A stretch of 64,000 nt of DNA from NCBI GenBank assembly GCA_048938105.1, contig JBHLMN010000014.1:1-64000 (forward strand), written 5' to 3'. Below are positions 1,693 to 38,846 of the stretch, piece after piece (the first letter of the stretch is position 1; each line of letters starts with the position of its first letter). The notes under the pieces were generated by a model that ran no database searches, was not told where the DNA came from, and saw only the letters and a program-made list of their open reading frames with translations. The position numbers and the translations under genes were made by a program. The stretch comes from Promethearchaeota archaeon. Its GTDB lineage: Archaea > Asgardarchaeota > Heimdallarchaeia > Hodarchaeales > Hodarchaeaceae.

Positions 1693-1745
<53 letters not shown>

Positions 1746-2438
1746 GCCTGCTCAACGAACCGACCATCGAGTACGGTATGACTCCGTAGTCTCTGGCAGG
1801 CCCGTCTCGCGTGCTGCGACGGGCGGTGTGTGCAAGGCCCAGGGACGTATTCAGCGCGCGCTGCTGACACGCGCTTACTAGAAATTCCAAGTTCATGAGG
1901 GCGAGTTGCAGCCCTCAATCCCAACTGAGACGAGCTTTGGAGATTACCGTCACCTTTCGGTGTTGGAACCCTCTGTACTCGCCATTGTAGCCCGCGTGTA
2001 GCCCTGGGCATATCGGGGCATACTGACCTACCGTTGGCCCTTCCTTCCTCTCACTTTTTCGCGAGCAGTCCCGCTAATGTCCCCGACGACCCGGGGGTCT
2101 CGCTGGCAATTAGCGGTAGGGATCTCGTTCGTTGCCTGACTTAACAGGACACCTCACGGCACGAACTGACGATGGCCATGCACCTCCAGTAACACGTCAA
2201 GCAGTGTCTTCAGCAGGACAATCATTCATGTTACGGCCCAGGTGAGCTTCCCGGAGTTGAGTCCAATTAAACCGCAGGCTCCACTTCTTGTAGTAGGCCC
2301 CCGCCAATTCCTTTAAGTTTCATTCTTGCGAACGTACTTCCCAGGCGGCGCACTTAACGCTTTCGCTTCGGCACTAGACAACGTCTTGCATTGCCTAACA
2401 CTTAGTGCGCATCGTTTACGGCATAGGACTACCCGGGT

Positions 2439-3189
2439 TTTTAGCGAGGTGTTAAAAATAGGCTTTTACACGTTTTAATTTTGCTGGATGAAGTATAGGA
2501 ACAGTTTTGATGAATTTAATGGCATCATCTTTTCCATAAATATAGATTTCATAATTTTTTTGCCACTTTTCTCGTTTTCGTATGCGTGTACTGTAGTTAA
2601 TAGATTTTTGGTCAAAAAATTCTTGGATATATGACCAAATTGGTTTAGAGGTGATGGCAAAATCGATTTCAATTTGTCTTTTCTTTAGGCTGCCTTCTGA
2701 ATCGTATAGGCCTGCAATATAATAAGCTTGATGATTTGTAGGGAAATTTGTAAGGTAAGATGGTAGTTTTTTCAGCGAACATCTTACCGATCCAGCTGTA
2801 AATTCTAAGACTTCTATCAGGTATCGAAAGATGATACTTGATTTTACATGACTATAATATGAGGAACGGTTTGAATCATGATAAAGATTTAAGGGGAGAT
2901 TGAATAATCGTTTAAATAGTGGTTGAAGAACATTTTGATGGTATTCGATATTTTTATCTGTGATTAGTATTCGATTTGATGAGAGATTACCGTCTCCATG
3001 CATTATCCCTATGAATCTGCATAAATCCTTATTGATTTTATGTGGTAATTTGACTCTATATCGGGATCCTTTACAATAATAAAAAGAGTCAATAGTTTTG
3101 ATATCTTGATGACTTTGTAAGAATTCTTTAAGATTCAACAATGTTACCGCTCAATTTTTTCGTGTCATGTTTGTTTATTAACACCCCGT
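2439..3189 (-). mobile_element. Archaeal BHB-type 16S rRNA intron (751 nt), inserted after about E. coli position 793
   Basis: Central helix TTAG/CTAA, bulges ATA and AAA, 11-bp terminal stem CGGGGTGTTAA/TTAACACCTCG. Cutting after the second nucleotide of each bulge restores GGATTAGATACCCGGGTAGTCC exactly. AT-rich relative to the exons. Confidence 0.96.
2452..3141 (-). CDS. Intron-encoded double-motif LAGLIDADG homing endonuclease
   Basis: Motifs FIGIMHGDG and YIAGLYDSEG about 95 aa apart. TTG start. The stop codon lies inside the intron terminal stem. Confidence 0.93.
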   Translation of the reverse strand: MLNLKEFLQSHQDIKTIDSFYYCKGSRYRVKLPHKINKDLCRFIGIMHGDGNLSSNRILITDKNIEYHQNVLQPLFKRLFNLPLNLYHDSNRSSYYSHVKSSIIFRYLIEVLEFTAGSVRCSLKKLPSYLTNFPTNHQAYYIAGLYDSEGSLKKRQIEIDFAITSKPIWSYIQEFFDQKSINYSTRIRKREKWQKNYEIYIYGKDDAIKFIKTVPILHPAKLKRVKAYF

Positions 3190-3976
3190 ATCTAATCCGG
3201 CTCGCGACCCTAGCTTTCGTGCCTCACAGTCGGACCCGTTCCAGTGCAACGCCTTCGCCACCGGTGGTCTGCATTGGATTATCGGATTTCACCCCTACCC
3301 AATGCATACCTTGCACCTATCCCGGTCCCAAGACGCGCAGTATCCCCCGCCCGCGCTAGGCTTAAGACCCAGCATTTCACGGGGGACTTACACTGTCCTG
3401 CTACGCACACTTTAAGCCAAATAAACACGCCCACCACTCTAAGAGCTGGTTTTACCGCGGCGGCTGGCACCAGTCTTGCCCTCTCATTATTCGCCAAGCT
3501 ATGTACACTTGGCAAAAGGCGTCCGTTGGGACACCACTCGGATTAGCCGGCTCACGCTTTCGCGCATTGGCCAGTTTTCGCGCCTGCTGCACCCCATAGG
3601 GCCTGGCCCGTTGTCTCAGTGGCCATCTCCGGGCTACCACTCTCATGGCCCGTACCGATCGTCGCCTTGGTGGTCCCTGACACCACCAACAAGCATAATC
3701 GGACGCAGACTCATCCTCAGGCGCCGTGGCTTTGAGTGCGAAGCCATTCCAGTAAATCGCACCTATAGGGAATTATACCCAGTTTCCCGGGGGTATGCCC
3801 TACCTGAGGGTAGATTATCTACGCGTTACAGAGCAGTTCGCCAGGCGAACGAGTCGCCTCGACTTGCATGACTTAGTCCCAATCCGATAGCAGTGGGCTC
3901 CGTCAGGATCGAACGGAATTACACGGAAGTTTTTGTTCCTTTTTTTGAATGAAATGGAATTTAATTAAACGGAGGT

Positions 3977-34397: not shown

Positions 34398-35135
34398 TTA
34401 GGTTTGAAAAAGTTGTGTTAATCTTAGATATAAATCATAAGCAGCACTTTTTTGAGCTTCTTTTTTGGTTTTACCATATCCTCTTCCTATTAGGATCTGA
34501 TTTTGATAAGTTCCTTGGCATGAGTACCAATATATAGGACTATGATCAACTCCTGCTTTCTTTTGAAATCGATAGGTGGGATTAGGTAGATTACGTTGTT
34601 GAAAAAACTCTTGGACTAGATTTTTCGGATTTTTCTCATTCTGACCCCATACTTTTAATTCCTCTTTTTCTTTGAGTAGAATTTTCTGTAAGTAGCCCTC
34701 AAAAAGTTGTAAGAGGAGTGTTTGACATGATTTTAGTCCATTAGCAATATATACCGCTCCAAAAATGGCTTCAACTGTATCAGCTAGGTCTTTTTTCTGA
34801 ATTTGGTAAGCTGGTGCGCAACGTAACATTGATTCAACCTGTAATTGTATTCCTACTTCTATTAACGTTTTATTTTGCACAATTTCAGCTCGTTTTATGG
34901 TTAAAATCCCTTCACTTTCAACTTCATGCTTATATAGCCAGTCGACTACTAGGAGATCTATGACTGAATCTCCTAACGTTTCGAGTCGTTGATTTGTATT
35001 AACGGTCGGATCCACTGATTTATAAGAAGGATGTGTAAGAGCTTCGAGAAGTAAAGGAACAGGTAGCTTTAAATTCCATTGAAGATTAAATTTTTGATAA
35101 TACGCCTTGTCCTTATCCAAAAACATCAGAACCAA
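34398..35135 (-). CDS. rnc: Ribonuclease III with C-terminal dsRBD
   Basis: ALTHPS, NQRLETLGD and LADTVEAIFGAVY; dsRBD NPKNLVQEF...GYGKTKKEAQKSAA. Confidence 0.93.
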   Translation of the reverse strand: MVLMFLDKDKAYYQKFNLQWNLKLPVPLLLEALTHPSYKSVDPTVNTNQRLETLGDSVIDLLVVDWLYKHEVESEGILTIKRAEIVQNKTLIEVGIQLQVESMLRCAPAYQIQKKDLADTVEAIFGAVYIANGLKSCQTLLLQLFEGYLQKILLKEKEELKVWGQNEKNPKNLVQEFFQQRNLPNPTYRFQKKAGVDHSPIYWYSCQGTYQNQILIGRGYGKTKKEAQKSAAYDLYLRLTQLFQT

Positions 35136-36491: not shown

Positions 36492-36815
36492 TAATATGGG
36501 AAATTTGTTCTAGATTTCCACATAATAATCTGTAAAAATCATTGTTCAAAATCTAGATCTGTTGTGAAGAAGCCCCTATTTTGGAATTGAATGGATATTA
36601 GAATCTCCATTGTTCCTACACTGTCTATTATAACCAATTTATCTGTTCCTTATTGCATGAATTTCATTGATAGGATCTCTAGGAATACTTTATTTCCCTA
36701 TTTTCTTCATTACACCTTATTTAAGTTGTATTTAACAAAGTAACTTGTGAAAAAAGGATTTTAGAAGGGCCGGTGCCGGGAATCGAACCCGGACAGGGTG
36801 GGCCACAACCACCGA

Positions 36816-36854
36816 TTATAGTGAATGAGGCAATTGTAAAAAGACCCCAATCAA
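36816..36854 (-). other. tRNA intron 2 (39 nt, position 24/25)
   Basis: Central helix GTAG/CTAT, bulges TCT and AAT, intron stem TGATTGGGG/CCTCATTCA. Confidence 0.85.
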
Positions 36855-36862
36855 GACTACCA

Positions 36863-36891
36863 GTGAATTATGAGTAAAAAACGACTCATAT
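36863..36891 (-). other. tRNA intron 1 (29 nt, position 15/16)
   Basis: Central helix GGAT/ATTC, bulges AAA and ACT, perfect stem TATGAGT/ACTCATA. Confidence 0.87.
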
Positions 36892-36937
36892 TTATCCTAC
36901 ACCGGCCAGATCGTCAAAATGCATTCAATTTCATGTG

Positions 36938-36944
36938 ATATAAA
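36938..36944 (-). promoter_or_regulatory. TATA box of tRNA-His
   Basis: Minus strand TTTATAT about 30 nt upstream of G-1. Confidence 0.6.
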
Positions 36945-37040: not shown

Positions 37041-38846
37041 TCAAAAGAATTTTGAATAATTTCTAAGGAATTCAAGGAATCTTTCTTTAAGATAAGTCGT
37101 TTCTCCTACATCTGTATTTCCAATGATCTTTTTAATAAAAATTTCAGAATTAAAGTCCATTTTCCTCCCCTTAAGGGCTTCCTCTCCATGTTTTAAAGAT
37201 TCTTTAACCTTTTGTATTAATGAACTATCTTCAAGTAATTTATTCCGATATTTCCTTAATATCACAGCTGCGATAATATCCCCCCAGCGTTGCATTTCTT
37301 GTTTACTCTTTCCCCAATAGCTTATGATAAGAACATTATTTTTCCTGGATATGTTGGTCAAACCACCAATCGAATAACCTTTTCTTATATATTCCAACTG
37401 TAGTTTTAATATACCTGTACCCCTTTTAACATCAAAATGTCCTATCGTTTTTAAAAAATCTAAGAGATAATCTCGTGCTGAAATACATCCTTTATGACTT
37501 CCAATTTCTCTTATTAACTTATTTTGGATGACCTCTCTTGCCTCCTGTTTTTCCCCAATTCTTCCGATTTCATAAGTTATTATATCAGCTTTTCCTATAA
37601 GATGACTTGATCCTGAAGAGATTCTCCCCCACCTATCTTCTGATATGACTTGTGTGGACAGATTTAATGAATTAACATCATTAAATTCATTAGTCTTTCT
37701 AGTTATTGAGTCTCTAATATTTTTATCTTGAATTAATGCAGCATTAAATCTGTTGAAACTATTGTTTCTGCTTTCATTGTAGAATATGGTTAAATTATCA
37801 CTAATATCTTTAAATTGCGTTTTCTTAGCATTTATCAAGTTATAAGTGATATTAATAGGTTTAGAATAGTTTATTTTAAGTTCTTGTATCTTTCTACAAA
37901 TCATCGTTGCAGGAATTTTCTTCACTTCTTCCCACCAATCAGATCTCGGATTTATCTCCTTTATTAACCATGACCAAAATTTAAACATTAATACTGATTT
38001 ATCACAAACATAGATTTCTGTTTCAAAAGAATTATCAGGTTCAGGGTCTCTTTCAGCATATAATTTTAATACAGACCGATTGCTGTCATATATCTCGAAT
38101 ATCTTCTGTTTTTGTGGAGAATCCTTAGCATGATTTCTGAAACCTGCATCACCCCCTAAATCTTCAACATGCTTCCAAAAAATACCCTCTAATATCTCAT
38201 CCGTTAATTCTTTTGTGATTTTAAGTTTAAATACTGTTTGAAACCAAGTTCTGTATTGTTCTTTTATTTTTAAGGGATAATGATACCCTTTTTTTTCTAA
38301 TTCCTTAATGATTAATATTTTAAGGTGAGGTATGTTATCAATCGAAATTTCTTTAGTAATAATTCTTATGAAAGTAAATTTCTGATTATTTTGTTTAATA
38401 TATTTTCTAAATCGTTCTAATCCATTCTTATTCCAGCTGGAATTTACGTTTAGAATTAAAAATTGCTCTAAGCTCCCATGATATGGATTGAGTATTGTTA
38501 TAGGTATGAAAGGGGTTATTCCTTCTAATTTACCTCTGAAAGTGAGCCAATCTTCATAACAATTGGTTGGAAATTGTTTTTTCGTCATAAATCCTTTCAT
38601 TTTTTCATAAATATCCTCATAGAAACGAAAATAAAATTGGTTGTTCGGTTTATTTATAAGAAAAAGTTGATTTTGGAATCTCTTTTTCAGGCTATCAAAT
38701 CTGATCCATATCTCATCTAAAGAAACTCTATTATTGTCAATTTTAGTATTCCAATATTTAATTATCTGTCTTAAAGTTGCTATGGAGGTTTTATCCTCTA
38801 GTGTTTCATTATAAGGTAATGGATACTGGATACGAATGCGAATCAT
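37041..38846 (-). CDS. Hypothetical protein (low GC, no recognised motif)
   Basis: 601-aa open frame, K/I/N-rich. Confidence 0.75.
   Translation of the reverse strand: MIRIRIQYPLPYNETLEDKTSIATLRQIIKYWNTKIDNNRVSLDEIWIRFDSLKKRFQNQLFLINKPNNQFYFRFYEDIYEKMKGFMTKKQFPTNCYEDWLTFRGKLEGITPFIPITILNPYHGSLEQFLILNVNSSWNKNGLERFRKYIKQNNQKFTFIRIITKEISIDNIPHLKILIIKELEKKGYHYPLKIKEQYRTWFQTVFKLKITKELTDEILEGIFWKHVEDLGGDAGFRNHAKDSPQKQKIFEIYDSNRSVLKLYAERDPEPDNSFETEIYVCDKSVLMFKFWSWLIKEINPRSDWWEEVKKIPATMICRKIQELKINYSKPINITYNLINAKKTQFKDISDNLTIFYNESRNNSFNRFNAALIQDKNIRDSITRKTNEFNDVNSLNLSTQVISEDRWGRISSGSSHLIGKADIITYEIGRIGEKQEAREVIQNKLIREIGSHKGCISARDYLLDFLKTIGHFDVKRGTGILKLQLEYIRKGYSIGGLTNISRKNNVLIISYWGKSKQEMQRWGDIIAAVILRKYRNKLLEDSSLIQKVKESLKHGEEALKGRKMDFNSEIFIKKIIGNTDVGETTYLKERFLEFLRNYSKFF

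Follow-up and report, generated by a model that had tools for sequence, protein, structure and literature searches.

Multi-intron tRNA genes with introns at non-canonical positions are classic in the Thermoproteales (PMC4033280, PMC4090602). Among Asgard archaea, one recent account reports that 92-95% of the tRNA genes of Atabeyarchaeia and Freyarchaeia carry introns, often at non-canonical positions, and that more than half carry several (PMC11291895). Such introns may also depend on one another: published cases include 'nested' BHB introns of archaea, whose removal is order-dependent, and Cyanidioschyzon merolae, in which ordered processing was found by experiment (PMC3728597). As to the enzymes, an (alpha-beta)2 EndA with the Crenarchaea-specific loop has already been reported in Asgard archaea (PMC5829648), and K44 of the Aeropyrum pernix enzyme, whose D-loop intron substrate is pre-tRNA-Thr2, is needed for cutting D-loop and BHL introns (PMC3241643).

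Here we describe a tRNA-His(GUG) gene with two D-arm introns in a 64,000-nt stretch of a Hodarchaeales genome, hereafter the window. The gene resembles the multi-intron tRNA genes of Thermoproteales (PMC4033280, PMC4090602) in its short BHB or relaxed introns, including introns in the D-arm, in the accompanying (alpha-beta)2 EndA with its loop, and in being missed by standard finders; unlike those cases, it has a Hodarchaeales host, its introns lie only 8 nt apart, and all four states of intron presence and absence occur in one genus. As in the Atabeyarchaeia and Freyarchaeia (PMC11291895), most ARAGORN-called tRNA genes of this genome have introns and five amino-acid types are missed, although the Asgard order is a different one, and intron interplay and within-genus turnover are apparently not analysed in that account. 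We thus add one more documented case of the dense interruption of Asgard tRNA genes, and the two-intron tRNA-His is a further case of an already known gene type; the distinctive claim, made in a first-pass annotation of the DNA, is that the two introns interlock and are spliced in order. That claim shares with the nested introns and with C. merolae (PMC3728597) the idea that the fold of one motif depends on another intron, with order set by stability. Nested introns need the prior removal of another intron before their motif can form, whereas both cores of the tRNA-His can form in the primary transcript, and the proposed dependence would be the reverse: an intron promoting its neighbour's removal by its presence, with intron 1 helping but, as single-intron relatives indicate, not required.

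Structure of the tRNA-His gene

The locus is 140 nt long and lies on the minus strand, running from window position 36907 down to 36768. Its parts, with tRNA positions in standard numbering, are as follows.

36938-36944, minus strand: putative archaeal promoter, a TATA-like box (TTTATAT) centred ~34 nt 5' of G-1, from reading of the sequence.
36892-36907, minus strand: exon 1, 16 nt, G-1 to A15; acceptor 5' strand, U8 A9, D-stem 5' strand G10-U13, and A14 A15; identical or near-identical across same-genus orthologues.
36863-36891, minus strand: intron 1, 29 nt, at 15/16; relaxed BHB (HBh') without an outer helix, consisting of central helix GGAU/AUUC and an inner hairpin of 7 bp; assigned from BHB geometry and hairpin covariation.
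36855-36862, minus strand: exon 2, a micro-exon of 8 nt, positions 16-24; contributes D-loop bases including G18 G19, plus three bases on the 3' side of the D-stem; assigned from the spliced product and orthologues.
36816-36854, minus strand: intron 2, 39 nt, at 24/25; BHB whose central helix is GUAG/CUAU, with 3+5 bp in the inner helix; assigned from BHB geometry and pairing conservation.
36768-36815, minus strand: exon 3, 48 nt, U25 to C73; C26, anticodon arm (GUG), 4-nt variable region, T arm and acceptor 3' strand; a single match in the genome.
36750-36755, minus strand: putative archaeal oligo-T terminator, six T, 13-18 nt past C73, from reading of the sequence.

After removal of the 29-nt and 39-nt introns, the joined 72-nt exons are called as tRNA-His(gtg) by ARAGORN, which bears out the first-pass annotation in its identification of a tRNA-His with G-1, C73 and GUG, interrupted by non-canonical D-arm BHB introns at 15/16 and 24/25. 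The product has the GUG anticodon and the extra G-1:C73 pair, and its computed fold is a cloverleaf, with a 7-bp acceptor stem, a 4-bp D-stem that includes two G-U pairs, a 7-nt D-loop with G18 G19, an anticodon stem of 5 bp, a variable region of 4 nt and a T arm of standard form. G-1 is genome-encoded in the window gene and in all of its orthologues; CCA is not encoded in the gene. The length of the middle exon had been given both as 9 nt and as 8 nt, an ambiguity left by the sequence itself, in which T is the first base of intron 2 as well as of exon 3; the BHB geometry fixes the second junction at 24/25, so that 8 nt is retained and 9 nt discarded. The relative G012, which also has both introns, carries a similar A/T box at a matching 30-nt spacing from its tRNA-His gene. 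Scanning for sigma-70 promoters and hairpin terminators, signals not appropriate to an archaeon, gave no hits.

Upstream of the gene and on the same strand, a 601-aa ORF without a Pfam match (37041-38846, minus strand) ends 134 nt away. Downstream, at a distance of 1.6 kb, a 245-aa ORF (34398-35135, minus strand) codes for a bacterial-type RNase III domain and a double-stranded RNA-binding motif, which is an unusual enzyme in an archaeon.

Detection of the gene and search for a second tRNA-His

The unspliced locus is missed by ARAGORN with every intron option and by the Rfam tRNA model, and default ARAGORN finds zero tRNAs over the whole window. The earlier expectation that standard annotation would overlook this gene thus holds for ARAGORN and the Rfam tRNA model, the tools that we ran, and the suggested comparison of the locus with its in-silico spliced form gives a clear outcome in ARAGORN, which calls the latter and not the former. 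The only Rfam matches in the window are archaeal 16S and 23S rRNA genes. The 16S rRNA gene (1695-3919, minus strand) spans 2225 nt against a model of 1478 positions, leaving ~750 nt extra, which presumably represent one or more rRNA introns.

We then considered the whole genome (5.85 Mb in 65 contigs, 99% complete, 7% contamination), which yields 35 ARAGORN calls and 34 Rfam tRNA matches; tRNA-His is absent from all of them genome-wide. Searches with blastn-short, using the exons and the mature sequence, and with a pattern running from the anticodon to the T arm found no second tRNA-His in the genome, each matching the window locus alone, and the question raised by the first-pass annotation of whether another tRNA-His exists is therefore answered in the negative by all four approaches in this 99%-complete assembly. 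On these searches, the window gene is apparently the sole tRNA-His source of the organism, and its recognition fills what automatic annotation would list as a gap in the tRNA set of an Asgard genome.

The tRNAs for Asn, Cys, Glu and Phe are likewise uncalled genome-wide by ARAGORN and the Rfam tRNA model. Introns are present in more than half of the ARAGORN-called tRNA genes of the genome, and one ARAGORN call is a 'tRNA-Pyl(cta)' with an intron at C11:135861-135970. Further hidden or mistyped multi-intron tRNA genes are likely to be present in this genome.

tRNA-His genes of related genomes

We searched the DNA of 40 related genomes and parsed the loci that were found; the genus comprises 21 genomes, including the window genome. 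Among the 20 other genomes in the genus, 17 yielded a tRNA-His gene, and the relatives mostly had one match per genome. Six of these genomes (G001, G006, G008, G016, G018 and G020) have an intronless gene, and in all six the sequence across the junctions of exons 1, 2 and 3 is exactly the predicted splice product. Eight (G004, G005, G009, G010, G011, G013, G014 and G019) have intron 1 alone (29 nt, at 15/16), two (G002 and G017) have intron 2 alone (39 nt, at 24/25), and G012 has both, as in the window genome; intron 1 is thus absent from the orthologues of eight genomes, the six that are intronless and the two with intron 2 only. Three assemblies that are 70-83% complete (G003, G015 and G007) contain no tRNA-His 3' half; by RtcB they are the closest relatives of the window genome. 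Scans of public collections revealed two more two-intron copies on metagenome contigs, one near-identical to that of the window (L038) and one other (L039).

The intronless orthologues and the independent two-intron copies establish that the locus is no assembly artefact and fix the junctions; judged by these comparisons of sequence, the gene is real and conserved. The same tRNA-His gene with no, either or both introns at identical positions constitutes a natural series in which the gain and loss of protein-spliced introns can be followed among the archaea most closely related to eukaryotes. It also supplies ready substrates for asking whether the removal of one intron is affected by its neighbour.

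Splice motifs

Junctions were placed by a rule derived from the canonical 37/38 geometry, in which each 3-nt bulge lies 3' of its 4-bp helix strand and cleavage falls after the second bulge base, and the resulting junctions were confirmed by the intronless orthologues. Both introns have a BHB core with a central helix paired at 4/4 positions and two 3-nt bulges on opposite strands, and cutting after the second bulge base gives a normal tRNA, as seen in both the ARAGORN call and the intronless orthologues. In intron 1, G10-U13 pair with intron bases 24-27 to make the central helix (GGAU/AUUC), which is flanked by the bulges AA|A and AC|U; since A9 lies opposite G18, an outer helix is lacking. 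In intron 2, G19-G22 pair with intron bases 34-37 (GUAG/CUAU) between the bulges UC|U and AA|U, and the 3+5 bp of the inner helix are arranged around a U-U mismatch. An inner flanking helix is present in both introns, and intron 2 could gain a 6-bp outer helix only by giving up the anticodon stem. The 4-bp helices and 3-nt bulges described in the first pass are thereby reproduced at both junctions, as is the relaxed type of intron 1.

The inner hairpin of intron 1 is 92% paired over 12 distinct sequences, with both sides changed in 6 of its 7 pairs; its covariation score was reached by 0 of 500 shuffles, and slid controls are ~38% paired. For intron 2, with five distinct sequences, 93.8% of cells are paired, the central helix is invariant, and three inner pairs have changed on both sides. 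The central helix of intron 1 is perfect solely in the two-intron genes and has 2-3 of its 4 pairs where intron 1 stands alone, and the enzyme must therefore tolerate quite relaxed motifs.

Splicing machinery

Two EndA genes are located on contig C38 of the window genome, whose EndA architecture the first-pass annotation had recommended determining. The alpha subunit (188 aa) carries the catalytic Tyr, His and Lys, shows its greatest similarity to the catalytic subunit of A. pernix EndA (E 5e-41), and aligns without gaps through the Crenarchaea-specific loop, with Lys at the position of A. pernix K44. The beta subunit (218 aa) matches the EndA fold and is missing the catalytic His, as in a structural beta subunit; it is closer to the N-terminal units of fused EndAs than to the beta subunit of A. 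pernix. An RtcB ligase is also encoded in the genome. From these sequence features, the host is predicted to have a crenarchaeal-type (alpha-beta)2 EndA of the broad-specificity type, with the loop Lys, and hence a splicing endonuclease for relaxed non-canonical motifs together with an RNA ligase. With its similar alpha subunit and K44-position Lys, the enzyme would be akin to that of A. pernix acting on the D-loop intron of pre-tRNA-Thr2 (PMC3241643).

A third, short match to the EndA catalytic domain (L031; G000:C38:22018-22119, minus strand), at a distance of 4.7 kb from the gene for the beta subunit, scores 28 bits, has one internal stop and probably represents a gene fragment.

Order of intron removal

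Our preferred reading, to which we assign a probability of about 0.7, is that this is the functional and apparently sole tRNA-His(GUG) gene of the organism, and that its two D-arm introns are independent and are removed one at a time with no obligatory order. In the primary transcript the acceptor and T arms, and probably the anticodon arm as well, would fold, each intron hairpin would dock on its exon partner to present a relaxed BHB, and the (alpha-beta)2 EndA would cut after the second bulge base, with RtcB joining the exons. Because the 3' bulge of intron 1 and the central helix of intron 2 have a single base, G18, between them, two EndA tetramers could not plausibly bind at once; we infer that one intron is removed at a time and that the 8-nt exon is at every stage still joined to a larger RNA. 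The isolated motifs are near equal in stability (-7.1 and -7.8 kcal/mol for introns 1 and 2), and either order is therefore expected, perhaps with a modest preference for intron 2 first.

The first-pass annotation had instead concluded that the folds of the two introns are mutually exclusive and that intron 2 is therefore the first to be cut. Spelled out, such a model would have the end of intron 1 pair with positions 26-31, turning the intron 2 motif into a strict hBHBh' and hiding the 3' site of intron 1, so that the order 2 then 1 is enforced and the micro-exon is protected. The pairing itself was correctly described. The outer helix of intron 2 (UCACUG/CGGUGG) can form 6/6 pairs, in which U16, G18 and the four bases that end intron 1 are matched with C26-G31; it overlaps two pairs of the intron 1 central helix and the whole of its 3' bulge. 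G27-G31 of its 3' strand are also the 5' strand of the anticodon stem, a point that the first-pass annotation overlooked. The same 6/6 helix is found in the three other two-intron sequences, all four of which keep pyrimidine-C-A-C at the end of intron 1, and it contributes -4.9 kcal/mol to the intron 2 motif (from -7.8 to -12.7); processing order in C. merolae is known to follow BHB stability (PMC3728597). However, the anticodon stem must melt for this helix to form, and the displaced anticodon arm is worth -5.9 kcal/mol; the fold with both BHB cores and an intact anticodon stem reaches -46.8 kcal/mol versus -43.1 for the interlocked fold, which is 3.7 kcal/mol worse. The two splice motifs are therefore not mutually exclusive, and what stands of that claim is the overlap of the outer helix with the intron 1 motif. 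In a partition function computed with fixed acceptor and T arms, the interlocking helix (P 0.50) and the anticodon stem (P 0.43) are about equally likely. Removing intron 1 lowers the probability of the intron 2 central helix from 0.35 in the full precursor to 0.17, whereas removing intron 2 raises that of the intron 1 central helix from 0.16 to 0.26. These modelled probabilities shift in the direction that enforced ordering predicts, and under nearest-neighbour energies, which ignore tRNA tertiary structure and protein, they correspond to a two-fold bias toward intron 2 first, not a switch.

Comparison with relatives does not support interlocked, ordered splicing. Neither intron needs the other, because each occurs alone in what is apparently the only tRNA-His gene of some relatives, and neither motif depends on the other intron's removal to form, as it would in a nested intron. 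G002 and G017 carry intron 2 without intron 1, and an outer helix of at most ~2 bp is available to them; conversely, the clade of G019, G004 and G013 has the same 6/6 pairing with intron 1 only. A T-to-C change in G012 strengthens the interlocking helix but equally strengthens the central helix of intron 1 itself. Moreover, the central helix of intron 1 must pair with the GG of the D-stem, and its pyrimidines consequently fit the GG of the anticodon stem automatically; the next intron 1 base is an A that is invariant in 12/12 sequences, with or without intron 2. The simulated chance of 6/6 pairing is 9% when unconditioned, 23% given a 4/4 central helix and 63% when the invariant A is added, so that, given intron 1's own constraints, chance alone would produce pairing of this extent in 23-63% of cases. 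The four two-intron sequences, which may all descend from one lineage, do not vary at positions 26-31, and the interlocking helix thus has no compensatory changes among them. Enforced removal of intron 2 before intron 1 is thus unlikely in our estimation. It is quite unlikely, too, that the last bases of intron 1 act as a helper strand that transiently displaces the anticodon stem, gives intron 2 its strict motif and masks the intron 1 3' site, imposing a fixed order of 2 then 1 in which the 8-nt exon is never released. The pairing of the intron 1 end with positions 26-31 is most likely incidental, with at most a mild preference for intron 2 first.

If the introns were instead relics in a decaying pseudogene, a working tRNA-His would have to lie elsewhere, either unassembled or concealed by other disruptions, for which the fragmentation of the genome into 65 contigs, its 7% contamination and the four other amino-acid types missing from the automatic calls leave some room. 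We rejected this as highly improbable, in view of the intact exons, which give a normal cloverleaf with G-1/C73, the compensatory changes by which the intron hairpins keep their pairing, and the lack of any other His-like sequence in the genome; the finding of one tRNA-His match per genome in most relatives and the putative TATA-like and oligo-T signals flanking the gene also argue for a working gene.

Intron turnover within the genus

We searched the genome for paralogous copies of either intron, such as transposition might leave, and none was found elsewhere beyond chance 12-16-mers. In a single-gene RtcB tree, which is moderately resolved, contains two deeply divergent RtcB types and is not a species tree, the four intron states are scattered: the window genome groups with the intronless G006 and G008, G005 (intron 1 only) is sister to the intronless G018, and both introns occur on both sides of the deep split. 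Several intron gains or losses within the genus are implied by this distribution.

The RtcB proteins themselves (L041-L060) fall into two types, with 74-92% identity to the protein of the window genome in 13 genomes and 43-46% in six, which suggests paralogues, gene replacement, or a genus broader than its name.

G013 has two tRNA-His loci on the same contig. One (L003; G013:C10:18609-18705, minus strand) is an intact gene with intron 1 only; the second (L021; G013:C10:21466-21569, plus strand), ~2.8 kb away and in the opposite orientation, is without the acceptor 5' strand and carries intron 2. This partial copy could be the remnant of a rearrangement or of an integrated element, and could represent a route for intron exchange.
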